Source: Clostridia bacterium (GTDB taxonomy: Bacteria > Bacillota > Clostridia > Oscillospirales > Acutalibacteraceae). From it: a DNA stretch of 64,000 nucleotides. The position numbers were made by a program, and so were the translations under genes. The notes beneath the pieces are model-generated. The model saw only the letters and a list, made by a program, of their open reading frames with translations, had not been told where the DNA came from and did not search any database. The stretch is taken from positions 6,306 to 70,305 of the forward strand of contig JAFQIG010000056.1 of the NCBI GenBank assembly GCA_017397655.1. The letters are read 5' to 3'. Below, in pieces: positions 2,195-63,853 of the stretch (its first letter is position 1; the number at the start of each line of letters is the position of its first letter).

Positions 2195-2211
2195 TTTTGT
2201 TTTTGTATTTA

Positions 2212-34878: not shown

Positions 34879-34940
34879 ACTTTCACTCCTCTCTTTTTTT
34901 CGTCACGATACACCACTTTTACAAAAAAATCAATGCAGAA

Positions 34941-34969: not shown

Positions 34970-35100
34970 TGTACTTTTTCCCAATTACAATTAATTTTTT
35001 CTAAAAAATATTGATAATTCCAAATTTCATTGATATAATAAATTGAATTTTGTTCTAAAGCGATTTTTGAAATGTTACCATTAATAGGGGGTAATTAATT

Positions 35101-35439
35101 TTGTATGAAAAAAGCAATGCAGTTGTTATCGGTCTTCGGATAATGCAACGAAGAAAGGCGCTGGGAATAACGCAGGCTGAGCTTGCCGAAACCATCGGCG
35201 TATGTGACAATCAGATATCAAATATCGAAAACGGAAAATGTTTTTTGCGTATGAGCAGCTTTCTGAAAATATGCGATGCACTGGACTGCACCACAGACTA
35301 TCTCTGCTCCGGCATGGTCAAAGATGATCTGCAGGATAACCTTGTCGATCTTTTATCTTTATTATCTGCCGAGGAGCAAAAAACCGTATGGAAATTGCTT
35401 GACGCTTATATTCACCGTGAGGATAACACTCTTGTATAA
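35101..35439 (+). CDS. XRE-family HTH transcriptional regulator
   Basis: IGLRIMQRRKALGITQAELAETIGVCDNQISNIENGK classic HTH_3. TTG start; an ATG at 35143 is the alternative. Confidence 0.75.
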   Translation: MYEKSNAVVIGLRIMQRRKALGITQAELAETIGVCDNQISNIENGKCFLRMSSFLKICDALDCTTDYLCSGMVKDDLQDNLVDLLSLLSAEEQKTVWKLLDAYIHREDNTLV

Positions 35440-35471
35440 CTGATTTATAATTTGTTTCATTTTTTATTCGG

Positions 35472-36176
35472 GTGATCAATTTGAAAATTCTGATTTGTGA
35501 TGACGAAAAAGTATACGTTGATACCATCAGCACAAATATATACTATTATTTTGACAACAAACAAATCCCATATTCCGTAAGCACTTTCACAGACAGTTCC
35601 GAGATCTTCAGAAACAACGAAAAATATGACATAGCTTTTCTGGATATTGAAATGAAGCCGAAAAACGGTATTGAGATAGCGAGTGAATTAAAAAGAATCA
35701 ATCCGCATACGATCATCTTTATCATCACTTCACACAACAAATATCTGGACGACGCTATGGATCTTCAGGTTTTCCGCTATATTCAAAAGCCGATTAACAT
35801 AGGTCGGATGTTTGCAGGTCTTGACAAAGCGCTTGAAAGGCTGAAAAATACATCTGTTCAGTTTTATCTTTCGGAAAAACCGTCATATGTCCGCGTTTGT
35901 TCCGATGACATAATCTATATAGAGATCGTCAACCGCAAAACAAATGTTGTTACCTTTGACAACACATATGTTTCTGCACTTTCTATCAAGGAATGGATGG
36001 AAAAGCTTCCGAAGGGCTCTTTTTATCCCGTTCATACCAGCTTTATTGTCAATCTCAAACACATAACGGCATATTCCCGCGAATCGGTTGTTATGGACAA
36101 TCGGTTTACCATACCGATTTCTAATAAAAATAAAACTGAATTCAGAACATTCTTTTTACATTTCAACAGAAAATAA
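35472..36176 (+). CDS. LytTR-family response regulator (AgrA-like)
   Basis: Receiver domain (KILICDDE...DIAFLDIEM) plus a C-terminal LytTR DNA-binding domain (..IIYIEIVNRKTNVVT...HTSFIVNLKHI). Confidence 0.88.
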   Translation: MINLKILICDDEKVYVDTISTNIYYYFDNKQIPYSVSTFTDSSEIFRNNEKYDIAFLDIEMKPKNGIEIASELKRINPHTIIFIITSHNKYLDDAMDLQVFRYIQKPINIGRMFAGLDKALERLKNTSVQFYLSEKPSYVRVCSDDIIYIEIVNRKTNVVTFDNTYVSALSIKEWMEKLPKGSFYPVHTSFIVNLKHITAYSRESVVMDNRFTIPISNKNKTEFRTFFLHFNRK

Positions 36177-40800: not shown

Positions 40801-40902
40801 GGCTTCGCTCTGATACGCATCGGAACGGGCGCTCTGAGGCTCATATTTACTGACAACAGTAGCCTCGCTTGTGGATAAAACCATGTTGTACTGACTCATC
40901 AC
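37837..40902 (-). CDS. hsdR: Type I restriction enzyme R subunit HsdR
   Basis: 1021 aa. SF2 helicase motifs (TGSGKT, DECHRS) and an N-terminal PD-(D/E)xK-type region (DVTILVNGLPLIHVELK). Confidence 0.93.
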   Translation of the reverse strand: MMSQYNMVLSTSEATVVSKYEPQSARSDAYQSEAELEKAFIKMLTEQGYQYLDISCQSALIENLRVQIEKLNNYKFSDKEWKYFFENQIANPNEHIVEKTRRIQEDYIQVLKRDDGTSKNIYLIDKKNIHNNFLQVINQYTEDSGTHDNRYDVTILVNGLPLIHVELKRRGRPLREAFNQIDRYQRESFWAGCGLYEYIQLFVISNGTHTKYYSNTTRDLHVKERTSSRNKKKTSNSFEFTSFWADADNRTIPDLVDFTKTFFAKHTILSILTKYCVFTSESLLLVMRPYQIVATEKIISKIITSTNYKQTGTIDAGGYIWHTTGSGKTLTSFKTAQLATALPFIDKVLFVVDRKDLDYQTIKEYDRFEKGAANGNRNTAVLQKQLEDDSARIIVTTIQKLDIFITKNPDHPIRDKHVVLIFDECHRSQFGEMHTRIVGGTVKKGEKVIKFNKFFKNYHIFGFTGTPIFSENASSGGIPDLKTTEQAFGQKLHTYTIVDAINDKNVLPFRIDFVDTLKRKDGIRDRQVNAIDTEEAMQSPERIKGIVSYIIDNFDRHTKRNQFYMAKGKRLNGFNSIFAVSSIPVAKKYYYEFKKQLEEKQRDLKIATIFSYGANEEDGTNGLLADESFDTDMLDVTSREFLDNAIDDYNKLFKTNYDTSSKGFQDYYKDLSLKVKEREVDILIVVNMFLTGFDATTLNTLWVDKNLRQHGLIQAFSRTNRILNAVKSFGNIVCFRDLEQETNEAVSLFGDKNASGLVLLKSFEDYYFGYDENGKHVKGYEERIAELLQKYPLGREICGEKNQKDFVVLFGNILRLRNILSVFDKFIGNEILSPFDVQDYTSLYLDIKDDFTIKVEKESIRDDVVFELELVKQVEVNIDYILMLVAKYHDSNCTDKEIIGSIDKAIRSSIELRSKKELIEAFIDTVNVNTDVRNDWKKFVGEQKEKEIDEVIAEHRLKPEETKVFIENAFCDGGIKTTGTDIDKILPAMSLFGGAGNNRAQKKKAVLERLQKFFEKYSGLI

Positions 40903-40912
40903 TTCGCTCCTC

Positions 40913-41467
40913 CTATCTTTTCATATTGCTTCCCAAATCTTTTCTCATCTCTGTATAAAGGGCTGCTATATGTTGTTTGAAAATTTCAGTGCTCGGGATA
41001 TTTTCTCTTTTGAAGTTTTCCACACGACTCTCAAAACATAAAATATCCATATCAGTTACATGGCAAATCTCATATTCCTCGCCGTACTCATTAAACTCAG
41101 TCTCAAAAAAACCCGGATTATTCTGCGGATCGTTCTTGATGTAAAAGCTTCTATATTCCTCATAGTTTTTAATTACAAATTCGTAGAAAGCCTTGAAAGC
41201 CTCTTCTGTTTTAGTCGAAGAGAGAAGCTTCATTTTGGGTTTAAAATCCAGTAAAACTTGTATGTAGCTACTATCGTATGTTTTAAACCTATCATGCAGT
41301 AAATGTTCTGCTTCATCATAAAACTTAAAATACAACTCTGCCCTTTTTTCCAAAACAAGCTTTTTGACTTCGTTTTTATGTGTTATCGATAAAGTTATAA
41401 GTGCTGTAATAATTGATGTAATAATTGACACCACACCAGTTAGTATAATAATATAAAAATCGTTCAT
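40913..41467 (-). CDS. Hypothetical single-pass membrane protein embedded between hsdS and hsdR
   Basis: 184 aa with an N-terminal TM (IIILTGVVSIITSIITALITLSI). ATGA overlap with the hsdS stop. No family recognised. Confidence 0.6.
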   Translation of the reverse strand: MNDFYIIILTGVVSIITSIITALITLSITHKNEVKKLVLEKRAELYFKFYDEAEHLLHDRFKTYDSSYIQVLLDFKPKMKLLSSTKTEEAFKAFYEFVIKNYEEYRSFYIKNDPQNNPGFFETEFNEYGEEYEICHVTDMDILCFESRVENFKRENIPSTEIFKQHIAALYTEMRKDLGSNMKR

Positions 41468-42672
41468 ACGTTTGTCACCCCAAATGTCAACAACATATTC
41501 CTATAATGCTCATACTGCTTCTGCCTTGCTTCGATTTCGGCAGGAAGACCGATATTAAGATCGGAACAGATAGCATCAAAATTATCAAGAACTTCTACAA
41601 GACGATCCTGAACATCACGAGGTGGTAAAGGAATTTCAATACTCTCTATTGATGGGACATTTGAATGAACAACCTTGCTTTTAACTTTTCCTTTGCTCTT
41701 TTGCTGTCTTGCCAAAGAAGTTGACAAAACATAAGAGAGATACTTGGGGTTCTGATTATGTTTCAGAACAACTATATCACCACCGGCAAGACATTTTTCG
41801 TTGCCTACATAAGCAGTTGACTTCGCAATATCTTCAACGCTTTCACCGGTGATTGCAAAAAGAATATCTCCATACTCAAAATATTTGGGACTGTTCACAT
41901 ATTCGAGTTTGGTGTGTGAATAGCATTTGTCAAACCATATTCCGTATTTGGTATAAATTTCACCGTATCTGACACAAGGAATCCCTTCTTCGGTTACTTC
42001 ATCTCTCTTAATTCCTGCACCACGATAAATATCGGTTGCTATATCACCAAGTTTAACTCTGTGTATTTCTCCGATTCTGTCAAACGAAAGTAAATCATCA
42101 CGATAATACTCATACTGCTTTTTACGAGCTGTAAGCTCTGCTGTGAGCTCTGCTGTGAGCTCTGCTGTGAGCTCTGTAAAATTGTCCAGAATACGGACAA
42201 TTTCATTCTGCACCTCCATGGGCGGTACAGGGATTAAAAAGTCTTCTGTAACATGCAGAGAAATCTGTGGAAGAGAACCCATTCCTGAGGCAGCATCTCG
42301 GAATATTTGAATATTATTCTTCAAAACATAGTACAAAAATTTAACGGAGACTTTATCATCTGTTGTATAAGCCCACATTTCATTTTTAAATGTAAAAGGC
42401 TTGTCGTAATATACAACATCTATCACTCCACGCGACTGAACTAAAACAGCAGGGACTCTTGTAATATTAGCGTTTGGAATATCATCTTCAAAAGCATTAA
42501 TAACAGTTTTTCCACCGGCAAATACTTTTATATCACCATCAGGGTTATCAATCTCTTTCATTTTTCCTGCAGTAATAGGAGTTCCTTTTAATCGAGTGTA
42601 GACATCTTTTACCTTTCTATACTCTACACCATTGGGACAAAGTTCCTCTATCAGTTGTTCAAGTTTTGTCAT
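41464..42672 (-). CDS. hsdS: Type I R-M specificity subunit HsdS (type IC-like central region)
   Basis: Two TRDs separated by ...FTELTAELTAELTAELTARKKQYEYYRDDLL, with C-terminal ...EIEARQKQYEHYRNMLLTF. The start is taken at [18 protein letters not shown]. Confidence 0.9.
   Translation of the reverse strand: MTKLEQLIEELCPNGVEYRKVKDVYTRLKGTPITAGKMKEIDNPDGDIKVFAGGKTVINAFEDDIPNANITRVPAVLVQSRGVIDVVYYDKPFTFKNEMWAYTTDDKVSVKFLYYVLKNNIQIFRDAASGMGSLPQISLHVTEDFLIPVPPMEVQNEIVRILDNFTELTAELTAELTAELTARKKQYEYYRDDLLSFDRIGEIHRVKLGDIATDIYRGAGIKRDEVTEEGIPCVRYGEIYTKYGIWFDKCYSHTKLEYVNSPKYFEYGDILFAITGESVEDIAKSTAYVGNEKCLAGGDIVVLKHNQNPKYLSYVLSTSLARQQKSKGKVKSKVVHSNVPSIESIEIPLPPRDVQDRLVEVLDNFDAICSDLNIGLPAEIEARQKQYEHYRNMLLTFGVTNV
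42128..42175 (-). repeat. 12-bp tandem repeat x4 inside hsdS encoding (TAEL)4
   Basis: Plus strand gctgtaagctct, then gctgtgagctct three times (42128-42175). Confidence 0.95.
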
Positions 42673-43525
42673 TGATTCTATCCCTCGCACATTTTAATGC
42701 TTCAAAACTCTTATTGGAAAATAAAAGCCGAGAACAGTTTTTGATTATTTCCTTATTGTATGAAGCAATATTCTTGATCTGATATATATCAAAAAACGCT
42801 AAGTCATTTTTCAAAATATCTTTGTGAAATATTTCAACTGCAACAGTAGGTGAAAGCGGTACAAAATATGTCACTTCCGGTGATACTGCTGAAATGGGTT
42901 CATTTGTTTTTTTACTATGGTCAATTTTTATCACAGGATTGTCGGATGTAATAAACGGAAGTTCTGTATGATTAATTATGAAAATCCAATGCCAATCACT
43001 AAATAGATTTGCATAGAAATTGCTCATACCAAAATCTAAAATTTCAGATGTGTGGATGCGCTGAAAATCCGTTTTTGAATATTGCGGTATATCCGCATAA
43101 GGAAAACCATCTTTTATCTGTTGATAAATATCTTTATAATAATTTCTAAATGCCTCTGTTCTTGTTATTAACAGTGCAAATTGAGCAGAAAGTTGCTCTT
43201 TTTCTATCTGTAGAGAAGAGCAATCTCGATGCTGAGGATCAATAATTATCGTGTCAAGCAAAACACGTAATAATGTGGCAAGTTCTCCCTCTATTTTATT
43301 TCCAAAAAATTTTTCAATAATTTTCTTTTGTTCGCCAAGTTCTTCGATATCATAAAAACGTTTGATTACTGGAAACTTTCCCACTTTTGAGCTGTCACAT
43401 TTATTTTCCTGCACATTGTAGAAATAAAGCATTGAATCACGACCTTTATTCCCTTCAATGCCGAAATTTGCCAAATAGGCTACCGGAACAGTATGCGAAT
43501 GTTCTACTGTGTTTTTATTTCCCAT
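42659..43525 (-). CDS. Hypothetical protein, DUF4238-like, embedded between hsdM and hsdS
   Basis: About 288 aa. N-terminal [13 protein letters not shown] resembles the H..VPQFYL..F start of DUF4238, recalled from memory and not searched. Overlaps both neighbours. Confidence 0.5.
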
Positions 43526-45083
43526 TTTCGATCTCCGCAATTATTTTTGCAATCTCGTCACGGAGCGCCTGCTCACGTGCTACGATTTCTTCGATCTCTG
43601 CATTCAGCTTTACGATGTCGACCTTTTCTCTTATATCCTCTGCTTCGACGTAGGTTGAAACCGAAAGATTATAATCATTCTCTTTGATTTCATCGTATGA
43701 AACAAGTCGGGCAAAGTGAGGAGCATCCTCACGGCTTGTAAATTCCGATACGATCTTTTCGATATTTGCATCGGTGAGCTTGTTGTTGTTTGTGACTTTG
43801 ACAAATTCGGCTGATGCATCAATAAACAGCGTTTTATTATCCGCCTTTGACTTTTTAAGCACCATGATGCACGTTGCTATTGATGTGCCGTAGAAAAGAT
43901 TTGACGGCAGCTGAATAATACAGTCAATAAAGTTGTTGTCAATAAGATATTTGCGGATTTTCTGCTCTGCTCCGCCACGGTACATAATTCCGGGGAAGCA
44001 GACAATTGATGCCACGCCGTTTGTCGCAAGCCAGGAAAGCGAATGCATTATAAATGCCATGTCCGCTTTTGACTTCGGTGCCAACACGCCTGCCGGGGCA
44101 AACCGAGGGTCATTGATAAGCACGGGGTTATCCTCGCCCTCCCATTTGATTGAGTAGGGCGGATTTGAAACGATTACCTCAAACGGCTCGTCATCCCAAT
44201 GCTGCGGTGACAAAAGCGTATCCTCGTTTGCTATATCAAATTTATCATAGCCGATATCGTGAAGAAACATATTGATTCGGCAAAGGTTATATGTAGTGAT
44301 GTTGATCTCCTGTCCGTAAAAGCCCTGTCGCACCTTATCTTTTCCGAGTATCTTTGATGCCTTAAGCAGTAACGAGCCCGATCCGCATGCAGGGTCATAT
44401 ATCTTATTAATTTCTGTTTTGCCGACTATTGCAAGCTTTGTCAGAAGTTCGGAAACCTCCTGCGGAGTAAAGAACTCTCCGCCGCTTTTGCCTGCGTTTC
44501 CTGCATACATTCCCATAAGATATTCGTATGCATCACCAAAGGCATCTATCGTGTTATCCTGATAGTTGCCGAGATTCATATTGCCGATACCGTCAAGAAG
44601 CTTGACAAGCTTTTCGTTGCGCTTGCCGACCGTTGCACCAAGCTTATTGGAGTTGACATCAATATCATCAAACAAGCCTGCAAAGTCATCCTCGCTGAAA
44701 CTGCCCTTTGCAGATTCTTCTATATGTCGGAACACGTTCTCAAGTGTTTCATTGAGGTTTTCATCGCGAGAAGCTCTTTTTCTGACATTGCAGAAAAGCT
44801 CTGACGGCAATATGAAAAAGCCCTTTGATTCAACAAGTGTTTCTCTTGCCGTTTCCGCATATTCATCCGACATAAGTGCATATTCAAAACCGATATTGCC
44901 TGCATCATGCTCCAGCTTATTAATATAGTTTGTCAGATTCTCCGATATGTAACGATAAAACATTATTCCGAGTACATAACTTTTAAAATCCCATCCGTCT
45001 ACACTTCCGCGCAGTTCATCAGCAATGCCCCAAATCGTTCTGTGAAGCTCGTCTCTCTCCTGCTCCCTTTTGATATCCGCCAT
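43515..45083 (-). CDS. hsdM: Type I R-M N6-adenine DNA methyltransferase HsdM
   Basis: HsdM N-terminal domain; [10 protein letters not shown] (motif I); NPPYS (motif IV). Confidence 0.95.
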
Positions 45084-47605: not shown

Positions 47606-48472
47606 ATGAAAAAAACATTTTCAAAAGCGCTCGATAAGTTTAATAGTTTGAATAACTTTTGTAAATCCATGATTATTCTATCAATTATTGTTGTATCAGG
47701 CATAATCGTTTCTACATGTATGATTTTATCGAGAAACAACGTATACATTAAAGCAGAAGAACGCGAAACCGATGTTGCGCAGTCTGACGTTTCCGTTCTT
47801 GAAACGATGCCCACAGATATAGAAAAGATCGCCGAGACAACAGAAACAACCCATATAACAGAATTAACTGAACATCCTGTCATCGATGATCAAACAACTT
47901 CAAATTCTTGGAAAAGAACCTACAAAGAATACCTTTTGAACATATGTTCAAGTGATCCTCGTGCCTCTTATCTCAACTTTATTCTGCGTTATATCGATAA
48001 CGATGATATTCCTGAACTTTTGATAAGTAGTGGTGATTTTCATAATTCTACAGTCACAATCGTTACCTACTCAAACGGGGAGCTTAATGAATATGACGGA
48101 TTGGGATCATATGGCGAACTCTACTTTGAAGAACGATCGAATCAATTTTTCGCAACATATTCGGGTATGGGCGTTTTTGATTTAACTTGTTATTATATCA
48201 ACAACGGTACTATTGTAAAGGATTTTCAACTTTCATATAGCGATCCCGAGGTTGTAGACTTAGATCTTGAAAAAATCTTTCACTATAATAATAAACTAAT
48301 TTCAGAAAGCGACTTTGTTCGTATTTATAATGAAAAAATCCCCGATTGGTATGCAACAATTGAAGTCTATAATGATGCGTGGGGCGTCCAACCTTTGGAT
48401 AATAACACTTTTACTACCTACACAAAATTAACCGAAGAAAACGTTAGAATTATTTTGGATCCCCTTAAATAA
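47606..48472 (+). CDS. Hypothetical membrane-anchored protein
   Basis: 288 aa with a TM at residues ~22-42. No family recognised. Confidence 0.5.
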   Translation: MKKTFSKALDKFNSLNNFCKSMIILSIIVVSGIIVSTCMILSRNNVYIKAEERETDVAQSDVSVLETMPTDIEKIAETTETTHITELTEHPVIDDQTTSNSWKRTYKEYLLNICSSDPRASYLNFILRYIDNDDIPELLISSGDFHNSTVTIVTYSNGELNEYDGLGSYGELYFEERSNQFFATYSGMGVFDLTCYYINNGTIVKDFQLSYSDPEVVDLDLEKIFHYNNKLISESDFVRIYNEKIPDWYATIEVYNDAWGVQPLDNNTFTTYTKLTEENVRIILDPLK

Positions 48473-48590: not shown

Positions 48591-48773
48591 ATGAAAAAAG
48601 TTTTTATCTTCCTTACAATTTCGCTCATTCTTACATCCTTTACAAATAAGTACGAAGAAAAAAAGACAGAGAACTTTACACAGACAACAACATCCTGCAC
48701 AACAATTGATCTTACCTCCTCCGAATATGATCAATTTTTTGAAGATTACGAAAACAGTCTTGTTGCCGAATAA
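48591..48773 (+). CDS. Small hypothetical secreted protein
   Basis: 60 aa with an AAGAGG RBS and a signal-like N-terminus. Confidence 0.35.
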   Translation: MKKVFIFLTISLILTSFTNKYEEKKTENFTQTTTSCTTIDLTSSEYDQFFEDYENSLVAE

Positions 48774-48810: not shown

Positions 48811-48925
48811 GATAAAGGCAACGGGAACACGCACATTATTACAAAGAGCCTTCGGATAACACGGGGGTTTTGAGATAATCAAGCCTAAGCTGTCATCCTG
48901 AAGCGAAGAATCTTAATAATAGTTT
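48811..48925 (+). repeat. Interspersed non-coding element, copy B (partner 37690-37800 on -)
   Basis: See copy A. Confidence 0.7.
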
Positions 48926-48929
48926 TTGT

Positions 48930-49937
48930 TCAGTTGAGTAACGATTTCATTATGGTGAGGTCGGTGGAATTGACGATTCCGTCACCGTTGAGGTCGGCGG
49001 CTTTTTTGTTTATGTCGGAGTATTCGGAGTCGCTGCCTGTGATGATGTCACGCATTGCAGAAAAGTCCTCGGCAGAGACAGCCGCACCGTCTCCGTTTAT
49101 GTCACCGTCAATTATTACGGTGTAGGTGTTATCGATAAGTCCGTATTCTCTGTTGATAAGCTCGATTGTCGTACCTGTCGTGATAACATCGTCACTTATC
49201 TCCATAATCGCATCACCGTCTACCGATACATAATCCCTTACCGTCTCTTTCGTCAGTCCCGACGGCAAGCCTCTGACATTCAACTCCTCATCAATCGTTG
49301 CCGTCTTTGATGTCAAGTGCGATTCGTCGATAAAATGAATGTCTGTGTATCCCTCGTAAAAGTCATTCCATTTGAGCAAATACTTATGGATTTCGGAATT
49401 CTCATAGCAATAAACATTTTCACATATTTGTGAGTTAATAATCGTGCCAACAAATGTCGTTACATTTTTTCCTATTACAATATTTTCGACATCATAAATG
49501 CCCCATTTTTCTATGTTTTCTACATTATTGCCAATAATGAGGGTTTTTAGTTCTACTTCGTGCCACGGACCGTGAGTGTCAAGTTCAAAAGCACTTTTAG
49601 CAATTGTTGTAACAGGTACACCGTCTATTTCATCGGGAATACGTAAAACTTCTTTATTGCAACTAAACAAATAGCCATAGTTAAAGATATAATCATACAC
49701 CTTGAAGCCGGTAATAACGATTTCCGTTCCGTCATTAATGTAGTGACCGGAAAAGTCATCACTCGGAATGCTGTTTCTCTCGGCAAGCACTTTCTGGACA
49801 TATATCATATCTTCTGCCGTTCCGCTTGCAGAAACACCCTGTTCCGTATCATTATCGGTTATAATCGAAGTGGGAATACCTATGCTGATAAAAAAACTCA
49901 TTATGAGGGACAGTATCTTTTGAAAAAGCTTTATCAT
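48930..49937 (-). CDS. Secreted LRR(BspA-like)-dockerin protein
   Basis: ATG at 49937 after a GGGAGG RBS; signal peptide; IPDEIDGVPVTTIAKSAFE LRR_5-like unit. The C-terminus is a type I dockerin (DGDINGDG...DLNGDGIVNSTDLTIMKSLL). Confidence 0.85.
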   Translation of the reverse strand: MIKLFQKILSLIMSFFISIGIPTSIITDNDTEQGVSASGTAEDMIYVQKVLAERNSIPSDDFSGHYINDGTEIVITGFKVYDYIFNYGYLFSCNKEVLRIPDEIDGVPVTTIAKSAFELDTHGPWHEVELKTLIIGNNVENIEKWGIYDVENIVIGKNVTTFVGTIINSQICENVYCYENSEIHKYLLKWNDFYEGYTDIHFIDESHLTSKTATIDEELNVRGLPSGLTKETVRDYVSVDGDAIMEISDDVITTGTTIELINREYGLIDNTYTVIIDGDINGDGAAVSAEDFSAMRDIITGSDSEYSDINKKAADLNGDGIVNSTDLTIMKSLLN

Positions 49938-50038
49938 TGTCAAAACCTCCCATTTATTTCTGTTTTTATTGTAACATAAATATTTCTTTTTTACAATAGT
50001 AAATCGCCCTTGCTATGTGGTACAGCAAGGGCGATTGT

Positions 50039-51244
50039 TCAGTTAAGTAACGATTTCATTATGGTGAGGTCGGTGGAATTTACGATACCGTCACCGTTGA
50101 GGTCGGCGGCTTTTTTGTTAATGTCGGAGTACTCGGAGTCGCTGCCTGTGATGATGTCACGCATTGCGGTGAAGTCCTCGGCAGAGACAGCCGCACCGTC
50201 TCCGTTTATGTCACCGTCTACGACCGCCGTATATGTTTTGTATACAAATTCGGGATCGGCGTTGACAAGTTCTATTTTTGTACCGGTTTTTACAACTTCG
50301 TCCGAAACTCTGATTTCTGCTTCTCCTTCAACTTTGAGATATGATTTTAAATCATTTTCAGTCAGTCCGCCTTGAAGTCCCGATATTACATAATCCTCAC
50401 TTATGTCAACCGTTTCCGAAGTCAGATATGCGTTCTCGATCAGGTGATATTCGTTATTGATCTCTCCGCTTTTAAGCTTTTGATGTATTGTGGAGTTTTC
50501 ATAACAGTAGACGATACATTCCGAATTTATTATATTTTCTTCTCCAAAATTCAATTCGGCACTTAAAACAACAAGTTTTTTTGCGTTTACGATATTTCCA
50601 CCCCAAAACTTCAACCCTTTCGGGATAACGAATGTATTCGTGTTTCTGATTCCTCCGAAACAATACGAATCTATATACTCGATTGATTCTGGCATTTGAG
50701 GTATATATGTACTATTAAAATAATCACCGAACGCCAAAGACGAACCTTTTATAACACGCAAATTATTATTCAACTCGATCTCGTTCAAAAAATAACAACA
50801 TTCAAATGCACCTTGTTCTATAATCTCGACATTCTTACCTAACTCTATACTTTCAATATGACTGTCAAGGAAAGCACAACGTCCTATATATCGAACATTG
50901 TCACCGATTTTAACAGACTTTATAAAATCAAGAGAGTTGGAACCGCCTTCATTAAAGAACGCCGTATCGCAGATTGTTGTTACAGGATAGCCGTTAATTT
51001 CATCAGGTATCATGATGTGTTCAACTTTACTGTATCCGCTTTCTTCAGAAAATTTTAATCCTTTTACGAATACTTCCGAATTTGATGAACCGCCGATAAA
51101 AACATCCAAATACTCATGGTCTACCAGTGTTTCAGAAGATATACCGACAGTAGGTGTCTCGATAATTGAATCATTACAAATCGTTGCATTTGGCATAAGC
51201 AGAACAAGAAAATATAAAAGAATTTTCTTAATAAACGCAAACAT
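50039..51244 (-). CDS. Secreted LRR(BspA-like)-dockerin protein
   Basis: ATG at 51244 (MFAFIKKILLYFLVLLMPNA) after an AGGTGA RBS. Several LRR_5 units and the same dockerin module. Confidence 0.85.
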   Translation of the reverse strand: MFAFIKKILLYFLVLLMPNATICNDSIIETPTVGISSETLVDHEYLDVFIGGSSNSEVFVKGLKFSEESGYSKVEHIMIPDEINGYPVTTICDTAFFNEGGSNSLDFIKSVKIGDNVRYIGRCAFLDSHIESIELGKNVEIIEQGAFECCYFLNEIELNNNLRVIKGSSLAFGDYFNSTYIPQMPESIEYIDSYCFGGIRNTNTFVIPKGLKFWGGNIVNAKKLVVLSAELNFGEENIINSECIVYCYENSTIHQKLKSGEINNEYHLIENAYLTSETVDISEDYVISGLQGGLTENDLKSYLKVEGEAEIRVSDEVVKTGTKIELVNADPEFVYKTYTAVVDGDINGDGAAVSAEDFTAMRDIITGSDSEYSDINKKAADLNGDGIVNSTDLTIMKSLLN

Positions 51245-51341
51245 AATATCACCTGATAATGTTAAAATATTATTATAATTATAGTATAAACAAATACTAT
51301 AAGTCAAGTAATACTTTTAAACTCCATACACATACATACTT

Positions 51342-53270
51342 TTAAACTCCATACCCATATTCTTCAGTTTTTTTATAGTGGGCATCGTGATAATCTGTAA
51401 AATAAATATTGTTGTAAGAAACAAATCTGTTTTTTGATGCAAGAGCATTTGTAGCACTTATTACGTCTTCTGAATTGACCTCACCATCCCAAGCCGGATC
51501 TGTAATCGTTGCCTCACTATCCCAATTTTGCATTATTTTAGAATTTCTCAAAACAAACCTAAAACCTACGAACATACATTTTTTTACAGTGCAAAAGATA
51601 TGAGAACCGCCTTCTGTATAATATTCATTCATAATAGCAGAATTGATTGTATATGGAGCATTGTTAATAAAGTTACAATTTCTAAATGACCAATGCATAT
51701 AAATTCTACGATTACTTCCAAATGAAAAAAACACGCCGTTTCTATATATATCTCTCAACTCATCAATCTCTGAAGCACTGTTGGGTATAGGGGAGAATAT
51801 AAAATCGCAAAAAGCAAACTCAACAAAACTAAGAACGCCTTTTGTGTGCGCAGGTAATGCTTCGTACGTTTTCGCTTTTGTATAGTCAATAACGATGTCA
51901 TTTATTTTAAATGTACAATCCTTAATCAACATATTATCGTTTTCAACATTTCTACTATTGCCAACAGTAAAAAACTTATGATGAAAATCGAAGTGGCAAT
52001 TCTTGATAACCAGATCGTTAACATAGTAGTTTGGTGAACCGCTCTTGTTTGATGGGATATTAAAAGCACCGCCGGCACTTGTATAATCGGGATGTCCGGA
52101 AAAACTGCAGTTTGTCACTACGACATTTTTTACACCTGCAAAAACAAGTCCGCAATATCTGACGTTGGTTGCGATTATATTCTCTATAACACAATTGTGC
52201 GTATTGTGACCGACATTAACTGCACAATAACAGTTGTCTATAATAATGTTTTTGATGACGAGAGAATCACTTTCCCTGATATCGTCGGTAGCTTCATCCG
52301 CCCAGTTTCTTTGTATTGCAGTACCCTCACCTGCATTAAGAAGTGTGAGATTTTCAAACGTGTAGTTGTTAATTGATCTTGAGGCATATATACAATGATT
52401 ACCGTGTCCTTCGTTATAAATATTCCAATCACAGGAGATGTATGAATCAACAAGATATCCACCGGTAACAAAGGAATACTCAATACCGGTAATCACTTTT
52501 TCGATATGGAGATTTTCCAGTCGGATATTTGCATTTGACGATGTAATATCCATGCCGTAGTTTGCGTTTTCCATTGTAACGTCGTGAATATGAATGTTGT
52601 TACAATCTGCAATATAAAAACACTTGTTATAAGTACTGTTGTTTCCTGTCGTAAGACAATGATACAGTCTGATATCCTTTACCTCAATATCGGAAACACC
52701 ACTCATATAGATCAAAGTGCTTTCATCTGTACCATTAGCAAGTGTCTGCAACGGCATAAGCATGGCGCCGCAACCGTTGAGCACTTTTCCCGATGGTATA
52801 TTAATCTTAGCGGAGATGCAATAACATTTACCGTGTGTCAGGCGAACCTCTTTGACATCTTCATGACTTAAAGCATCATCAATAATGCCTATTCTTGTAA
52901 TAATATTATTATCACGTATTGTACTATTATTATCTGTCTTGCCCGAGTTTGCGGCGACAAGTGAAGTGCCGTAATCGTGAACTTTTTTGATGGGTGGCTC
53001 TACCGGTGTGTTATGCGATTCCAAATACTCCTCAAATGTTATCGGAAACGCACCGTCACCTTTAGCGCCGAGCTGATCGATGTTGACTGTACCGTTTTCG
53101 ATAATCATAACGGCTTTGAGCTGCTTATCTGCTGTATTGACAAGCGTGTGCTCGAAATGAGAGCTCTCATCAGCGAGACCCTGTTCCACCTTGAAACGTG
53201 CACCGCCGCCGTCATCGACAGCGTAATATCCGAGCGTTACAATCTCATCGCCAACGTTGAAGTGTTTCTT
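51342..53270 (-). pseudogene. 5'-truncated paralog of the beta-helix genes (may still be expressed from GTG 53189)
   Basis: The frame is open to 53270 (..KKHFNVGDEIVTLGYYAVDDGGGARFKVEQ..) and is homologous to residues ~23 onward of the two upstream paralogs. It has no ATG or RBS, and the missing 5' end is replaced by the terminator of the dockerin gene. Confidence 0.55.
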
Positions 53271-53276
53271 TTACTT

Positions 53277-53328
53277 TACAAAAAATCCTTCGCTTTCACG
53301 GTAGTGTTCCGAGCATAGCGAAGGATTT
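53277..53328 (-). terminator. Intrinsic terminator of the dockerin gene 53333-54370
   Basis: AAAUCCUUCGCU-22 nt-AGCGAAGGAUUU followed by UUUUG. Confidence 0.65.
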
Positions 53329-53332
53329 TCAT

Positions 53333-54370
53333 TTAGTTGAGTAACGATTTCATTATGGTGAGGTCGGTGGAGTTTACGATACCGTCACCGTTGAGGTCGG
53401 CGGCTTTTTTGTTAATGTCGGAGTATTCGGAATCGCTTCCCGTGATGATGTCACGCATTGCGGAAAAGTCCTCGGCTTCGCCTGTCAACCCGTCTCCGTT
53501 TATGTCTCCGTCAATTATTACGGTGTAGGTGTTGTCGATAAGTTCGTACTCTCTGTTGATAAGCTCGATCGTTGTACCTGTTGTAATGACATCGTCACTT
53601 ATCTCCATGATCGCATCACCGTCTACGGAAACATAGTCCTTTACCGTCTCTTTCGTCAGTCCCGACGGCAAGCCTCTGACATTCAACTCATCATCAATTG
53701 TTGCCGTGTTTGATGTCAGATGTGATTCGTCGATGATAAATATTTCTGCATTTTCATAGTTTTGTTTTATCGAAAAGTTGTATATTTCGGAGTCTTTATA
53801 GCAAAACAGCTTCTGTCCCATTTTCCAACCGAAATTCGGTTGCTCCTCATCTATATACATCAGCTCATCATTCAGATGAAAAGGAGATACATTTTTGCCT
53901 GCTATAACATTGGGTATGTCCACAACGCCCAAATACTCTATTGTTTTAATATTGTTACCCAAAACAATAGTGTGCGGTTTAATATCGGTAGCAATCGTTC
54001 CCGCAAACCCCCATTCAAAGGCGCTTTCAGCAATTGTCGTAACAGGAATACCATCTATTTCGTCAGGAATCCTAATATTATAGTTTTTGTTAAAAAATTC
54101 ATAACCGTCATACCCATTTGCATCATATGACTCTGCGCGGAAACCTCTGATTACAATTTCTGTACCGTCATTTATATAATAGCCACCAAATTCATCACTT
54201 GGAATCTGATTCCAATAATCAAGCATTTGTTGCTCATATATTATCCCCGGATCAATATCCGGATCATAGTAGATCATATTATTCTCTGTTTCTATTACAC
54301 TTGCAGAAATATTAACACTCATAAAAATACTCATTATGAGGGACAGTATCTTTTGAAAAAGCTTTATCAT
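53333..54370 (-). CDS. Secreted LRR(BspA-like)-dockerin protein (paralog of 48930-49937)
   Basis: Same signal peptide (MIKLFQKILSLIMS) and near-identical C-terminal ~115 aa including the dockerin. Has its own TTGTAA-17-TATAAT promoter at ~54395-54425. Confidence 0.85.
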   Translation of the reverse strand: MIKLFQKILSLIMSIFMSVNISASVIETENNMIYYDPDIDPGIIYEQQMLDYWNQIPSDEFGGYYINDGTEIVIRGFRAESYDANGYDGYEFFNKNYNIRIPDEIDGIPVTTIAESAFEWGFAGTIATDIKPHTIVLGNNIKTIEYLGVVDIPNVIAGKNVSPFHLNDELMYIDEEQPNFGWKMGQKLFCYKDSEIYNFSIKQNYENAEIFIIDESHLTSNTATIDDELNVRGLPSGLTKETVKDYVSVDGDAIMEISDDVITTGTTIELINREYELIDNTYTVIIDGDINGDGLTGEAEDFSAMRDIITGSDSEYSDINKKAADLNGDGIVNSTDLTIMKSLLN

Positions 54371-54435
54371 TGTCAAAACCTCCCATAATTTATATTTTTA
54401 TTATAACATAAATATTTCTTTTTTACAATAGTTTC

Positions 54436-54472
54436 GGGTCGGATATTTACGACTATCGGAAATATCCGACCC
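54436..54472 (-). terminator. Hairpin/terminator after the beta-helix gene 54480-56435
   Basis: GGGUCGGAUAUUU-11 nt-AAAUAUCCGACCC, a 13-bp perfect stem; weak U-tract. Confidence 0.55.
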
Positions 54473-54479
54473 TGTCAAA

Positions 54480-56435
54480 TCAGATGCCGAAATCGACACC
54501 CTTTACATAGTGGGTGGTGTTGAATCCGTCAATAATTTCGTTATATTGATGAATGTTATTGATTGCTATGAAGCGCTGTTTGTTATTCATAGCATTAACA
54601 GCAGTATCGACAGACACATTATTACCGGCTCCCGGCGGATAAAAACACGGGTTGGTATCACTGCTTTTGTCATCACCTGTAGTTGAAACACGTATAGTCC
54701 AACGAAAATTGACAAGAGTACAGTTTTTCATTGTACAGTGAACTTTCTTAGTAACAACATTATTATACATTTCATCGGACATCGAATTGCTTAGAACAGG
54801 ACTGTTAACCGTTACACTACCGTTATTAATGAATTTACAACGATCAAATGTCCAATGCATCTCTTTATTACGGTCACTGGTAAAATAGAAAAAAACACCG
54901 TTTTGACTGTGACTGTCATTAAAAAAGCGTTCTGCTTCAAACACACATTTAATAAAGGTTACGTTTGAAACAATTCCCTTAACCAGCGCAGGTGTTGAAG
55001 CTTGTGCCATCTGAGGCGAGAATATATGGAAATAACAGTTCTTTACTATTAAACTATCACCGAATAAAATTCTGCTACTTCCAATCGAAATAAATTTACG
55101 GTTAAAATCAAATTTGCAATTATCAACAATAACATTTTTAATATAATCCAATTCTTTAGAGTCACTCGGAACGGATATTCCACAAGCGGCTTCGTCCATG
55201 CTTTTGAAAGAACAGTTGGTGATAAGTACATCTTCCGCACCGCAAAGTGCAATACCTGATTCCATGACGTTGGTTGCAATGATATTTTTAAAGACACTAT
55301 TACGTGTTCTTTTACCGACATGAACAGCACAGTCACAGTTGTCAATAATAATATTGCTAAACAACAGGTTTTCTCCGAAATAATCAAATGAATCAAGTGC
55401 CTCGTTGCGGTTTATAGCATTACCTTTACCGGCATTACGCAATGTAAGATTTTTGAATACACAATCCTTCATTGCTCCGCCGGCGTAAATGCAATGCTTG
55501 CCGTTTGCTTTATCCGCAGAGAGAAGAAGATTGTAATCACATGAAATATATGAATCGCTTATCAAGCTGTTCATTATATCTCCGATCTCCAAGCCTGTGT
55601 AAACATCTAATATATGCACATTACGGATTGAAACGGTGTTGTAATCAGTACCTTTTTTGCTTGCTGTAGATTTAATTCCTACATGAGAACGTTCGATAGT
55701 AACATCGTGAATATCAACGTTTCTGCAATGCTGAATATAGATTGCTCTGTACGTATAGTCATCGCTGATAAATGCGTTATGGATAAGTCGTACATTCATA
55801 ATTTCGATATTCTCATTAAATGCAGTACCGCTGTTGCGACAATTAATGAGATAGTGTAACCCTGATAGTGGAGTTGTGTTAATATACATTATTGTGGCAC
55901 TGTTTCCGTCAAGAACCTTGTTGCTCTGCATATTGATGGTCGATTTTGTTCCGTAGATTTTGCCTGCGGTAAGACGAATGCAATGCACCTCCGAATTTGA
56001 AATCGCTTCATTGAAAAACTTTGCATTATCTGTTGCTGTAATAGCAACCTCGTTTTCATCCAGATACTCGGAACTGCCGTTATTGATATTAAGCGTTTTT
56101 ATGGTTCTCATATCACAGCTTTCCGGATTGCTATACGAATCATTAAATGATAACGGCAGAACCGCATCACCTTTAGCACCGAGCTGATCAATATTGACCG
56201 TGCCGTCCTCGATGATCATAACGGCTTTGATCTGCTTATCTGCTGTATTGACAAGCGTGTACTCGAAATGAGAGCTCTCAGCAGCGAGATCCTGTTTCAC
56301 TCTGAAGCGTGCACCGCCACCATCTCCGCTGCTGTAATAGCCGTGTGTAACAATTTCATCACCCGGCTTGATGTCGGTTATTGTCTGTGAAATTGTACCT
56401 AAATCGGCAGTTGCAGCTATTGTATAAACTGACAT
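54480..56435 (-). CDS. Right-handed beta-helix protein (pectate-lyase-3-like), no signal peptide
   Basis: 651 aa with an AAGGAGG RBS. N-terminal GDEIVTHGYYSSGDGGGARF...VNIDQLGAKGD, then many beta-helix rungs (..VFKNIIATNV.., ..VLITNCSF.., ..VIVDNCKF..). Confidence 0.8.
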   Translation of the reverse strand: MSVYTIAATADLGTISQTITDIKPGDEIVTHGYYSSGDGGGARFRVKQDLAAESSHFEYTLVNTADKQIKAVMIIEDGTVNIDQLGAKGDAVLPLSFNDSYSNPESCDMRTIKTLNINNGSSEYLDENEVAITATDNAKFFNEAISNSEVHCIRLTAGKIYGTKSTINMQSNKVLDGNSATIMYINTTPLSGLHYLINCRNSGTAFNENIEIMNVRLIHNAFISDDYTYRAIYIQHCRNVDIHDVTIERSHVGIKSTASKKGTDYNTVSIRNVHILDVYTGLEIGDIMNSLISDSYISCDYNLLLSADKANGKHCIYAGGAMKDCVFKNLTLRNAGKGNAINRNEALDSFDYFGENLLFSNIIIDNCDCAVHVGKRTRNSVFKNIIATNVMESGIALCGAEDVLITNCSFKSMDEAACGISVPSDSKELDYIKNVIVDNCKFDFNRKFISIGSSRILFGDSLIVKNCYFHIFSPQMAQASTPALVKGIVSNVTFIKCVFEAERFFNDSHSQNGVFFYFTSDRNKEMHWTFDRCKFINNGSVTVNSPVLSNSMSDEMYNNVVTKKVHCTMKNCTLVNFRWTIRVSTTGDDKSSDTNPCFYPPGAGNNVSVDTAVNAMNNKQRFIAINNIHQYNEIIDGFNTTHYVKGVDFGI

Positions 56436-56495
56436 TAATTTTTCCTCCTTTACTTTTTATGCGGTGAGTGACCTTTCGGACACCCACCGTTTTTA

Positions 56496-58367
56496 TTATG
56501 ACTGTTCGGATTCCTCGTTATTTGATAATCCGTACTCCTCTGCCTTCTTGTAATGCGTAGTATTAACTCCGGTTGTGAGAGTATCGAAAAGATATAGGTT
56601 GTTATATGCCAGATATCTTTTCTTATCCGTGAATAGCGTTTCTGATGCCTCGATAATATCTGCATCCGGATAGCCACCGAACGCAGGATTGATTTTTACA
56701 ACACCTGTCTGAGGAACGATATTACCTTCCTCATCCTTGCACGGAACGGCAGACGTCTCTGTCGATGTGCAAATGCGCGTAATCCAACGGAAGCCTTTGA
56801 AAGAACTATTTCTTACAGAAACAGTTGTACTGTCAGCATTCTGTAAATCAACCCAAATGGGAGAATTAAGCGTGACAATGTTTCCGTTTGAATCTTTTGT
56901 ATTGTTGAAAAATCTGCAATTATCAAAAGACCAGTTCAAATCCTTACCGTTCTCAAACGGCGCAAAGTAAAACAGAGCTGCAACAGAATCGCTGTTACTT
57001 TCGTTGAGGGGATATCCGTTCACTTCAAACAGACAATTATCAAAAGCTGCATTGAGGGTTTCTCTCGGATAAATCATCGACGGGGATACTGTGGCTGGGT
57101 CCATATCGGTGAGCCTGAAAATACAATCGTTGAAGAAAAACATATTAAAAGCCTGTGTGTTATCAGCGGGTTTTGCGTAAACCCAATTAGATTTGCTTTC
57201 AAACAAACAATTGTTAAAAGCTATGCTTTCGCTTCGCAGGGAGTACATATAAACATTTGTTTCCTGCGTATCTTTAAATACACAGTTGTTGAAATGTATA
57301 TCTCCTGCGATTCCGAAAGAAAGGGAAGTGTTTACATTATTCACAAAAACTCTGTCGAATTGAGTTTTTTCGCCCGACAAACTCATGGCTAAATCACAAT
57401 TCATTATTGATATATCCTCAAAGCGATTATTGTCAACGATGCTTGAAGATGAAATACCTGTTCCTGTTCGAGCGGTGTCAATATTACCGGAGATAGAGCA
57501 GTTTGCAAAATAGTTATTCATATTGCCATCGCCCAAAGAGATACCTCGGTTTAACCCTGCATTTGAGGGAGCAATAGAGATACCTGAAAACACAGAACCA
57601 GAAAGATTTGAACAGCGTATTCCATAGGATTTAGCAAAAATTTGTACATAGCGAATATCCGCAGTACAATACTTCACTGACGTATCGTAAAATTTGATGC
57701 CGTCACATAAAGACTTGATTACCAGATCACGCATCCTTACCGATTCTGCATCAACAAAGCCTATAGCGCTGTTTCCGGAGAATTTGTAGAACTTAAGGCT
57801 CTCAATATTTACAGTCGCACTTGATGTAAACTTCATAATGTCTGTTGAAATATTTGCAATCTCTAAAAGAGATGCGGGCTCGGCAGCAGAACTGCAAATC
57901 TTTTTTGCGATACTTCCCGAATAATTGATTGTGCTCTTTACACCGTAGATTTTTCCGGGAGAAAGCATAACAACGCAGATATCCTCTCTGTTTAACGCTG
58001 CAGTAATAATGGGTGAATTATCTTTAGCACCTGTGTTAGCACTAAATGTATTCTGCCTGTATGTGCTGTTATAGACAGTTTCCTCAGGCAGAACCGCATC
58101 ACCTTTAGCACCGAGCTGATCGATATTGACCGTACCGTTTTCGATAATCATAACGGCTTTGAACTGCTTTTCTTCCGTATTGACAAGCGTGTACTCGAAA
58201 CAGGAACCTTCAGCAGCGATACCCTGTTCTACTCGGAAGCGTGCACCTGCACCATCATCAATATGGTAATACCCTTGAGTGATAATTTCGTCTCCAACGT
58301 CTACACCGTTGAAAACTTCTGTGCCCATATTAAACAAATCTGTTATGGGTAATTTGTAAATTGACAT
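56496..58367 (-). CDS. Right-handed beta-helix protein (pectate-lyase-3-like), no signal peptide
   Basis: 623 aa with an AAGGAG RBS. The N-terminal ~95 aa are conserved with 54480-56435 and 51342-53270, and the remainder is divergent. Confidence 0.8.
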   Translation of the reverse strand: MSIYKLPITDLFNMGTEVFNGVDVGDEIITQGYYHIDDGAGARFRVEQGIAAEGSCFEYTLVNTEEKQFKAVMIIENGTVNIDQLGAKGDAVLPEETVYNSTYRQNTFSANTGAKDNSPIITAALNREDICVVMLSPGKIYGVKSTINYSGSIAKKICSSAAEPASLLEIANISTDIMKFTSSATVNIESLKFYKFSGNSAIGFVDAESVRMRDLVIKSLCDGIKFYDTSVKYCTADIRYVQIFAKSYGIRCSNLSGSVFSGISIAPSNAGLNRGISLGDGNMNNYFANCSISGNIDTARTGTGISSSSIVDNNRFEDISIMNCDLAMSLSGEKTQFDRVFVNNVNTSLSFGIAGDIHFNNCVFKDTQETNVYMYSLRSESIAFNNCLFESKSNWVYAKPADNTQAFNMFFFNDCIFRLTDMDPATVSPSMIYPRETLNAAFDNCLFEVNGYPLNESNSDSVAALFYFAPFENGKDLNWSFDNCRFFNNTKDSNGNIVTLNSPIWVDLQNADSTTVSVRNSSFKGFRWITRICTSTETSAVPCKDEEGNIVPQTGVVKINPAFGGYPDADIIEASETLFTDKKRYLAYNNLYLFDTLTTGVNTTHYKKAEEYGLSNNEESEQS

Positions 58368-58426
58368 TAAATTTTTCTCCTTAATAATTTTTAATAGTTA
58401 CGAATAAGAGAAAAATCTGCTACAAC

Positions 58427-58466
58427 ATAAAAAACACCTCCTGCAAGAAATTACACTTGCAGAAGG
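58427..58466 (-). terminator. Intrinsic terminator inside the 5' leader of the beta-helix array (attenuator candidate)
   Basis: CCUUCUGCAAG-UGUAAUUU-CUUGCAGGAGG (11 bp, all paired including one G-U) followed by UGUUUUUUAU. It lies ~60 nt upstream of the start codon. Confidence 0.6.
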
Positions 58467-58573
58467 CCCGATTTTGCGGTATAATAAAACTACCGCACGA
58501 GCCTTTGCTTGTGTGGGGATCGGTGGCAGGCTGCTGTAACTTTGGTCGGGAACTGCGGCCTGCTTACCAAACA

Positions 58574-58587
58574 GAACAAATGTTCTA
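58574..58587. promoter_or_regulatory. LexA (Cheo-box)-like palindrome AGAACAAATGTTCT
   Basis: Matches GAAC-N4-GTTC and extends to a 14-bp palindrome. It lies 7 nt downstream of the -10 box, overlapping the predicted transcription start. Confidence 0.4.
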
Positions 58588-58594
58588 TAATTTA

Positions 58595-58623
58595 TTATAT
58601 ATATCTTTTTTCTGTTTGTCAAT
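58595..58623 (-). promoter_or_regulatory. Consensus sigma-A promoter driving the beta-helix array
   Basis: Minus strand TTGACA (58618-58623), 17 nt, TATAAT (58595-58600). Confidence 0.65.
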
Positions 58624-63364: not shown

Positions 63365-63853
63365 GTGTTACTCAATATACTGATTGAAATACTGCTCATC
63401 GCATTACCTTTAGCAATAATCGCATTTTTAGTCTATGCACCGATACGTTTCTTCAAATTGAAGAATAAAGAAAAGAAAGACCCTTCTTCCGTCAGTGCCG
63501 AAGAGATGAAAGACGGTAAGATATTGCTGTGTATGGCATTGACTGTTTTGGGCTTTTTGTTGATGCTGTTTATTATCATTCTCATTCAGATTTTCCTCTT
63601 GGATTCTTATTGGTTTTTGACTTATGTTGTTCTGTGCTTGGGACCTGCAATATCGTTGATTTTCTTTATTCACAGTCTGGTTAAATACAAAAAAATAAAG
63701 AAAAAGACAGATATTGATCCCGATACCGTCAGCAAAGAAGAACTGAAAAGAAGAAAGCTCAATCTCACGCTTTCTTTGACTATAATAGGTGTGCTGGTGG
63801 TTTGTGCAGTTATTCTGTTTTCGTTGTACACTATGTTTATGCTCTCTATGTGA
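63365..63853 (+). CDS. Hypothetical membrane protein with an internal two-fold repeat
   Basis: GTG start. Two similar halves (K-rich loop ..KDPSSVSAEEMK.. / ..IDPDTVSKEELK.., each followed by a TM). Confidence 0.45.
   Translation: MLLNILIEILLIALPLAIIAFLVYAPIRFFKLKNKEKKDPSSVSAEEMKDGKILLCMALTVLGFLLMLFIIILIQIFLLDSYWFLTYVVLCLGPAISLIFFIHSLVKYKKIKKKTDIDPDTVSKEELKRRKLNLTLSLTIIGVLVVCAVILFSLYTMFMLSM

Follow-up and report, generated by a model that had tools for sequence, protein, structure and literature searches.

The window analysed here, a 64,000-nt stretch of contig JAFQIG010000056.1 from a Clostridia bacterium, contains an array of genes encoding tailspike-like beta-helix proteins, interleaved with genes of secreted dockerin proteins. 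The beta-helix proteins form a small, unannotated family derived from phage tailspikes and present in Acutalibacteraceae-type gut Clostridia. The parts of the array are known (tailspike fold, dockerin, leucine-rich repeats (LRR), LexA box); the gene set itself has not been described before. A full-text literature search for tailspikes together with dockerins returned nothing like this module.

All six array genes lie on the minus strand in the order p1, p2, dockerin gene A, p3, LRR_5-dockerin gene B and dockerin gene C, where p1-p4 denote beta-helix paralogs 1-4 (p4 lies on the same contig beyond the window). The p1 gene (56496-58367) encodes a 623-aa type A protein consisting of a neck module (residues ~1-90), a beta-helix and a C-terminal part, and p2 (54480-56435) encodes a 651-aa type B beta-helix protein; both lack signal peptides. 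The ATG codon of p2 lies 60 nt past the p1 stop codon, and the ATG codons of p1 and p2 are preceded by the Shine-Dalgarno (SD) sequences GGAG and AGGAGG, respectively. The p3 gene (51342-53270) is also of type B and has 642 open codons. Thus, of the three beta-helix genes listed in the initial annotation, p1 and p2 are confirmed as open reading frames (ORFs), whereas p3 is an open frame without a start codon. The GC content of the array is 0.35-0.41, compared to 0.44-0.48 in core genes.

The beta-helix proteins and their phage relatives

Residues ~24-90 of p1-p3 are 77-83% identical, while the bodies are 24-38% identical. Both the conserved N-terminus and the divergent bodies had been noticed initially. 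However, the bodies do not represent unrelated modules that were exchanged, as p1 and p2 can be aligned over the full length (E=2e-55) and the proteins are end-to-end homologues. Single-chain AlphaFold2 models of p2 (predicted local distance difference test score, pLDDT, 81; predicted template-modelling score, pTM, 0.84) and p1 (pLDDT 72, pTM 0.71) are right-handed beta-helices. When these models were compared with PDB and BFVD by Foldseek, the best matches were phage tailspike depolymerases with E-values of 1e-7 to 1e-10, in agreement with the tailspike similarity suggested initially.

The neck-module profile matches residues 41-113 of PDB entry 8OQ0_A, the gp48 tailspike of Acinetobacter phage APK09 (E=3.9e-8). 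In APK09 gp48 the N-terminal beta-sheet domain follows the particle-binding domain, and the 8OQ0 construct lacks the latter, that is, the first 140-150 aa (PMC10219094). Hundreds of phage-type tail fibre and spike proteins share the neck module, which in them occupies residues ~60-130, ~220-295 or later, behind N-terminal anchor regions and ahead of PF12708 or Beta_helix regions; these distant proteins do score with PF12708. The same neck-after-anchor order occurs in many Firmicutes phage tail proteins. Thus the N-terminal ~90 residues, initially compared to a virion adaptor, do resemble a part of tailspikes, but this part is the neck domain following the particle-binding domain and not the adaptor.

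True phage relatives of the family exist. A 1081-aa relative (E=2e-36) is encoded on a viral contig that also has genes for terminase, portal, major head and endolysin. Like P0019, P0021 and P0022, three relatives closer than the tail proteins above, it has ~180 extra N-terminal residues compared to the window proteins. The latter begin at the neck module, and the particle-binding (anchor) domain is absent. Given the neck homology, and since the extension is present only in the phage relatives, the window proteins correspond to a tailspike reduced to its soluble delta-N part. Together, the fold match, the homology of the neck to a solved tailspike and the phage relatives uphold the tailspike link of the initial annotation, and our confidence in the identity of these proteins as phage-derived delta-N tailspikes is high. 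As stated initially, the window lacks phage structural genes within its annotated part (~668-64000), and none were found in seven related loci.

The gene of the 1081-aa relative occupies positions 485-3730 of its contig (IMGVR_UViG_3300026179_000016), between the small terminase gene and a block of exonuclease, endolysin and large terminase genes, and lies outside any obvious tail module. Its ~180-aa extension has no Pfam or PHROG family. A BppU_N-like identity of the phage extension, guessed from its appearance, was not supported by Pfam or PHROGs and was rejected.

No family was assigned to the beta-helix proteins by Pfam, PHROGs, NCBIfam or PADLOC, single-sequence PDB searches gave no match, and no toxin or defence families were found in the array proteins. 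None of the paralogs matches PF12708 (Pect-lyase_RHGA_epim, formerly Pectate_lyase_3) at the Pfam cut-off. The sole Pfam signal among them is a sub-threshold match of p3 to PF13229 (17.7 bits, cut-off 25.9). On the other hand, the decapeptide NIDQLGAKGD, a GAKGDG-type motif at the helix start, is invariant in p1-p4. Thus, of the proposed pectate-lyase-3-type bodies, the models bear out the beta-helix fold, and the PF12708 score does not bear out the family.

The absence of signal peptides from the three paralogs, as initially observed, is confirmed by simple hydropathy: no N-terminal hydrophobic segment is seen, the maximum 12-aa hydropathy is 0.6-1.1 and the net charge is at most zero. Indeed, export signals are absent from every family member. 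Each beta-helix protein contains 15-19 cysteines. The residues H314 and Y317 (p2 numbering) are common to type B and the phage relatives, and E248 is specific to type B; type A proteins have none of the three. The dN/dS ratio (non-synonymous to synonymous divergence) is ~0.15-0.2 for the neck and 0.27 for the p2-p4 body.

The family is rare and, judging from the sample labels of the contigs, seemingly confined to animal-gut metagenomes. Only seven relatives were found among 5.8 billion clusters. A profile search of 1.84 billion representatives yielded 23 proteins at E<=1e-30 and 1247 proteins at E<=1e-3, and most of the weaker matches cover only profile positions ~20-93, which is the N-terminal module. 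In the JGI metagenomes there is neither a relative of the family nor a copy of the 20-mer taken from the p1 leader (see below).

The A-B module, its promoter and leader

In the neighbour-joining tree the cellular members split into two old subtypes, A and B, with phage proteins as the outgroup. Type A comprises p1 and the leading genes of the pairs elsewhere, and type B comprises p2, p3, p4 and the second genes; in the window, p1 and p2 are the intact pair. The order of A followed by B is seen in seven Acutalibacteraceae-type loci, namely the window, L005, L009, L023, L004 together with L010 (one Acutalibacteraceae metagenome-assembled genome (MAG)), L014 and L026. The pair is followed by an LRR_5-dockerin gene in L005, as is the B gene of L009. 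In L023 the pair is followed by a signal peptide with a BspA-like start, and in L004+L010 by a signal peptide that hardly differs from the signal peptides of dockerin proteins in the window. The remaining loci contain A and B, adjoining dnaA in the case of L014. Thus a secreted LRR(-dockerin) gene follows the A-B pair wherever the downstream sequence is available, and the expected co-occurrence of beta-helix and LRR-dockerin genes in related genomes is indeed observed. The flanking genes differ at each locus, which shows the module to be a self-contained chromosomal unit. Next to it there is no conserved sugar transporter, kinase or regulator.

The p1-p2 operon is preceded by a promoter (58594-58622, minus strand) of the form TTGACA-17-TATAAT, which matches the sigma-70 consensus in all 12 positions and is conserved in L004 and L024. 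Nine nucleotides past the -10 box starts a palindrome, GAACAAATGTTC (58574-58585), similar to the LexA (Cheo) box. It is the core of AGAACATTTGTTCT on the minus strand, with the core pattern GAAC-N4-GTTC. The LexA operator of Bacillus and Clostridium is GAAC-N4-GTTC/GTTT (PMC4234289). Candidate LexA boxes overlap the A-B promoter in five of the six loci for which upstream sequence exists (the window, L004, L024, L014 and L026). In L014 and L026 there are two boxes each upstream of the type A gene, and the leaders cannot be aligned to that of the window. One of the L026 boxes lies between the -35 and -10 boxes and the other directly past the -10 box. A LexA-type site is expected by chance about once per 64 kb. 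As the boxes sit at the promoter of the A-B pair, the operon is likely repressed by LexA, and we consider its SOS control, predicted from these sites, with moderate confidence.

A second perfect LexA-type core, GAACATATGTTC, is situated at 47938-47949 within an ORF (47606-48472) encoding a 288-aa membrane-anchored protein. The site is also conserved in L018 and L019, which are strain contigs; chance alone would give one such site per window.

The p1 gene has a 5' leader of ~223 nt (58368-58590, minus strand) with a terminator-like hairpin (58436-58467) and a U-run followed by the SD box. The minimum free energy of the leader is -67.7 kcal/mol (z=-4.65). It has no match in Rfam at the gathering threshold or at E<=1. 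The leader is ~85-90% identical at the nucleotide level in three genomes (the window, L004 positions 9772-10000 and L024 positions 5778-6000). This identity is retained despite strong divergence of the type A coding regions, and there are five compensatory pairs. The leader is thus a candidate new cis-regulatory RNA or attenuator.

Start-less copies, dockerin genes and the neighbourhood

The open frame of p3 begins with the first codon past a TAA codon (53270) and contains no ATG, GTG or TTG before its first canonical start, the GTG codon at 53189. It has neither an SD sequence nor a promoter. The region between dockerin gene A and p3 (53274-53332, minus strand) contains a terminator-like hairpin with a 14-bp stem and a U6 run, ending ~10 nt upstream of the frame (dG=-21.8, z=-5.7). 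Since there is no start or SD box and the hairpin is located just upstream, p3 is a copy truncated, compared to p1 and p2, by ~22 codons at the 5' end. The p3 variants P0156 and P0157 from other strains have the same truncation. In P0157 (contig of L020), a four-residue in-frame deletion in a beta-helix rung changes NANYGMDITSS to NANITSS, and the frame is still open despite the absent start. Coupling of p3 to upstream translation by read-through or via the small ORF past the dockerin stop codon was considered and rejected, as this ORF is not conserved upstream of p4.

The p4 copy is found further on the same contig (L001, whose positions equal window positions minus 56295). Approximately 8 kb past p1, the other strand carries a dockerin gene, p4 and two more dockerin genes, so that p4 is inverted relative to p1 and their 5' ends face each other. 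The 5' end of p4 is organized exactly as that of p3: the end of the dockerin gene is followed by the same hairpin and TAA codon and then by a start-less open frame; the hairpin is a part of a duplicated junction block common to both copies. The p3 and p4 junctions are 93% identical over 685 nt, after which the identity is lost, whereas the body of p4 is 78% identical to that of p2 over 1295 nt. As the junctions match and the bodies differ, recombination must have occurred inside the neck-coding block. Indeed, the breakpoint of the mosaic p4 coincides with the direct repeat D2, a neck-coding block of 235 nt at 53029-53263 (minus strand) with further copies at 56140-56374 and 58072-58306 (74-80% nucleotide identity). 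In this block, dN is 0.09-0.12 and dS 0.5-0.8 between p1, p2 and either of the start-less copies, and dS between p3 and p4 is 0.37, whereas in the bodies dS is saturated. Given the low neck dN/dS and the saturated body dS, the neck block is under purifying selection and either younger than the bodies or homogenised.

The interleaved genes encode dockerin protein A (53333-54376, 345-347 aa), LRR_5-dockerin protein B (50039-51307, where the ORF opens; 401 aa from the ATG at 51244) and dockerin protein C (48930-49943, 335-337 aa), a paralog of A. In protein A, the signal peptide is followed by a short BspA-like LRR stretch, a conserved linker domain and a type I dockerin. All three proteins contain Dockerin_1 (type I, PF00404; 33.8-40.1 bits, cut-off 22.9) and typical signal peptides (hydropathy 2.2-2.6, charge +2). 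Only protein B exceeds the cut-off of LRR_5 (BspA-type, PF13306; 58 bits); A and C remain below it and align to B over the short BspA-like repeat stretch. Thus the initial description of these proteins as secreted LRR-dockerins holds for the signal peptide and dockerin in all three cases and for LRR_5 in one. They resemble the SIGN-LRR-Doc proteins of Ruminococcus cellulosomes and amylosomes, which likewise combine a signal peptide with BspA-type LRR and a dockerin of type I and are listed for R. flavefaciens FD-1 with function unknown (PMC2930009). Unlike the latter, they are syntenic with tailspike-like genes, and their C-terminal halves are homogenised, dS being 0.2-0.36 compared to at least 1 in the N-terminal half. 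The 3' block of the dockerin genes forms the direct repeat D1 (53326-53625, minus strand, with further copies at 48923-49222 and 50032-50331) with 80-90% nucleotide identity.

Each dockerin gene is preceded by a promoter-like site on the minus strand. In the p2-dockerin A intergenic region (54377-54479), a strong hairpin 3' of p2 (dG=-27.3) is followed by the site TTGTAA-17-TATAAT with TG (54400-54428); the sites of genes B and C are at 51278-51307 and 49968-49996. The promoter blocks of genes C (49943-50000) and A (54375-54432) are 84% identical. An inverted repeat ATTGTAA ... TTACAAT in the promoter regions of these two genes spans the -35 and -10 boxes and hence could be an operator.

The array adjoins a type I restriction-modification system (hsdR, hsdS, hsdM; 37837-45083, minus strand). 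Beyond it there is a low-GC island (28753-36176, GC content 0.32-0.37) with a gene for a 1469-aa RHS/YD-shell protein containing DUF4474 (29817-34226, minus strand), which overlaps by 19 nt the downstream gene of an LRR_5 protein with a lipoprotein-type signal (28753-29835). This pair, flanked by two AgrB genes and a LytTR two-component pair, is the second case in the window where a large effector-like gene is followed by a surface BspA-type LRR protein. The island and the hsd system form a variable competition/defence region of lower GC content. A 60-aa ORF (48591-48773) looks like a small secreted peptide, and a 162-aa membrane protein (63365-63853) has a sub-threshold holin match only. Another beta-helix protein, of 393 aa (11841-13022, minus strand), with Beta_helix and weak PF12708 matches, is unrelated to the array and is encoded between ftsZ and the sporulation genes yqfD/yabP. 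Finally, a T-box leader (7804-8032, minus strand; 115 bits, E=8e-25) overlaps the listed start of the ORF 7086-7859 at its 5' end.

Possible function of the module

The sequence data are best read as a domesticated tailspike pair, SOS-induced and released by lysis, with LRR-dockerin partners and silent type B cassettes; we give this reading about an even chance. LexA would repress the p1-p2 promoter through the overlapping GAAC-N4-GTTC box, and upon DNA damage the A and B proteins would be made in the cytoplasm. Like colicins, tailocins and phage proteins, they would reach the outside only on lysis of the induced cell, and there they would bind or cut cell-surface polysaccharide. The LRR-dockerin proteins, expressed from their own promoters, exported by the Sec pathway and docked on cohesin scaffolds, may be binding partners that capture A and B on kin cells or neutralise them. 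One analogy is the plant polygalacturonase-inhibiting protein (PGIP), an LRR inhibitor paired with a right-handed beta-helix glycanase, polygalacturonase (PMC3834070), although the proteins of the array are bacterial and dockerin-anchored and have no homology to this pair. The p3 and p4 copies may be silent cassettes or orphans able to replace the expressed type B body by recombination. Confidence in the release route and in the role of the LRR partner is low. Of the three readings offered in the initial annotation, a domesticated receptor-binding/depolymerase set was judged the best fit, without the comparison of the N-terminus to a virion adaptor; display through the LRR-dockerin partners is kept as a putative route.

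Several observations speak against this reading. The Foldseek TM-scores (template-modelling scores) of the tailspike matches are 0.2-0.5, and with such modest values the likeness to any single tailspike is at the level of fold only. The family has no invariant acidic residue that could be catalytic. No LexA box was found within the 82 nt of upstream sequence in L005, and the genes next to the module include neither a lysis gene nor a holin. The LRR-dockerin proteins are linked to the beta-helix proteins by synteny only. Positive selection was not found when the LRR regions of dockerin paralogs were compared (dN/dS 0.24-0.68), and with these values below 1 no arms-race signal is visible. As regards the cassettes, no chimera of a full-length N-terminus with a p3 or p4 body was seen among the cluster members, no recombinant or inverted arrangement was seen in the cluster members or in the assemblies read (three of six p2-carrying contigs), the latter all having the same order and orientation, and the start-less copies were found only in this MAG lineage. 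Given the latter, they may be mere decaying duplicates.

One alternative is that A and B serve as the receptor-binding spikes for a particle encoded elsewhere and co-induced by SOS (a tailocin, a prophage or a particle similar to a gene transfer agent), attachment being provided by the neck module or by a separate adaptor, as in dual-tailspike phages. Much of the evidence is compatible with it: the tailspike fold, neck homology, LexA-box promoter, tandem A and B genes, absence of export signals and phage relatives. Tailspike depolymerases (APK09 gp48, HK620, Sf6, Depo32, K2-2) have the same neck, right-handed beta-helix and C-terminal part; as in the array proteins, the N-proximal part is typically conserved, the body varies and there is no signal peptide. 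The array proteins differ from these depolymerases in having no particle-binding domain and no Pfam or PHROG family, in their chromosomal location away from phage genes, and in the fixed A-B pair with an LRR-dockerin gene and a LexA-box promoter. Against particle spikes, the array proteins start exactly at the neck, without the ~180-aa region of the phage relatives; the module occupies differing chromosomal sites with no phage structural gene nearby, and its constant neighbour encodes a Sec-exported dockerin protein and is not a tail gene. Particle spikes seem rather unlikely.

By analogy with SOS bacteriocins, the module might serve competition: an SOS-induced depolymerase pair would strip or pierce the surface polysaccharide of relatives, a cohesin-anchored LRR inhibitor would confer immunity, and start-less orphans would serve both to switch specificity and to retain immunity. 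As is generally known, such bacteriocins (colicins with their immunity genes, tailocins such as diffocin) have a LexA operator, no export signal and an adjacent partner gene with its own promoter, all of which are seen in the array, and tailocins are also phage-derived. The array differs in lacking a lysis gene, tailocin genes and a known toxin domain; the related loci and the annotated part of the window contain no sheath, tube, baseplate or tape-measure genes of R- or F-type tailocins. Moreover, its partner is a secreted surface-anchored LRR protein, whereas bacteriocin immunity is generally provided by a cytoplasmic or membrane protein. We regard this version as possible but not probable.

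Another possibility is recombination-based variation as the main function, with p1-p2 as the expression site and p3 and p4 swapped in via the neck-coding block, so that the expressed protein would change in specificity or antigenicity. Such a system would account for the long open frames of p3 and p4 without start, SD box or promoter, the 235-nt homology block with 74-80% identity, the mosaic structure of p4, in which a p3-type junction is joined to a p2-type body, the inverted position of p4 ~8 kb beyond p1 with facing 5' ends, and the neck dS (0.4-0.8) far below the saturated body dS. In the orphans of contact-dependent inhibition (CDI) and Rhs systems and the sapA cassettes of Campylobacter fetus, start-less 5'-truncated copies are generally known to keep a homology block. 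As in CDI/Rhs orphans, p3 and p4 are each followed by a partner gene, and one copy is a mosaic. Here, however, the homology block is a folded neck, there is no toxin domain, S-layer protein or observed switching, no recombinase is encoded nearby, and the constant gene order, the lack of chimeras and the restriction of the extra cassettes to one lineage are not what such a system would lead one to expect. It is therefore a doubtful explanation for the whole array.

Two further alternatives are very improbable. One is a decaying prophage remnant without present function, with the dockerin genes as chance neighbours; the two start-less copies out of four, the lower GC content and the rarity of the family fit this picture, but the A-B(-LRR) order is retained in seven loci despite protein identity of 30-40%, the ORFs are intact and under purifying selection, and the promoter, LexA box and leader are conserved. 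The other, proposed in the initial annotation, is that the proteins are cytoplasmic glycan-processing enzymes (hydrolases, lyases or epimerases) with a metabolic role. The absence of export signals in the family, 15-19 cysteines per protein and a beta-helix fold that also occurs in lyases and epimerases (for example AlgE, PL6 and GH87) agree with this. Yet catabolic genes do not usually have a LexA-box promoter, no conserved sugar-metabolism neighbours are present, the closest relatives by sequence and structure are phage tail proteins, and A and B have no conserved catalytic residue in common.

If the domesticated tailspike pair is real, it would clearly exemplify how a host can appropriate a receptor-binding enzyme of a phage, here trimmed to its soluble enzymatic part, with duplication into two fixed subtypes and SOS control. 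It would provide a candidate partner for many cellulosome-type LRR-dockerin proteins of unknown function. Should these partners bind, the role of cohesin-dockerin scaffolds would extend beyond enzymes acting on plant fibre or starch to the display or neutralisation of enzymes derived from phages. The module also supplies a candidate structured leader RNA and an example of natural cassette mosaicism in gut Clostridia.

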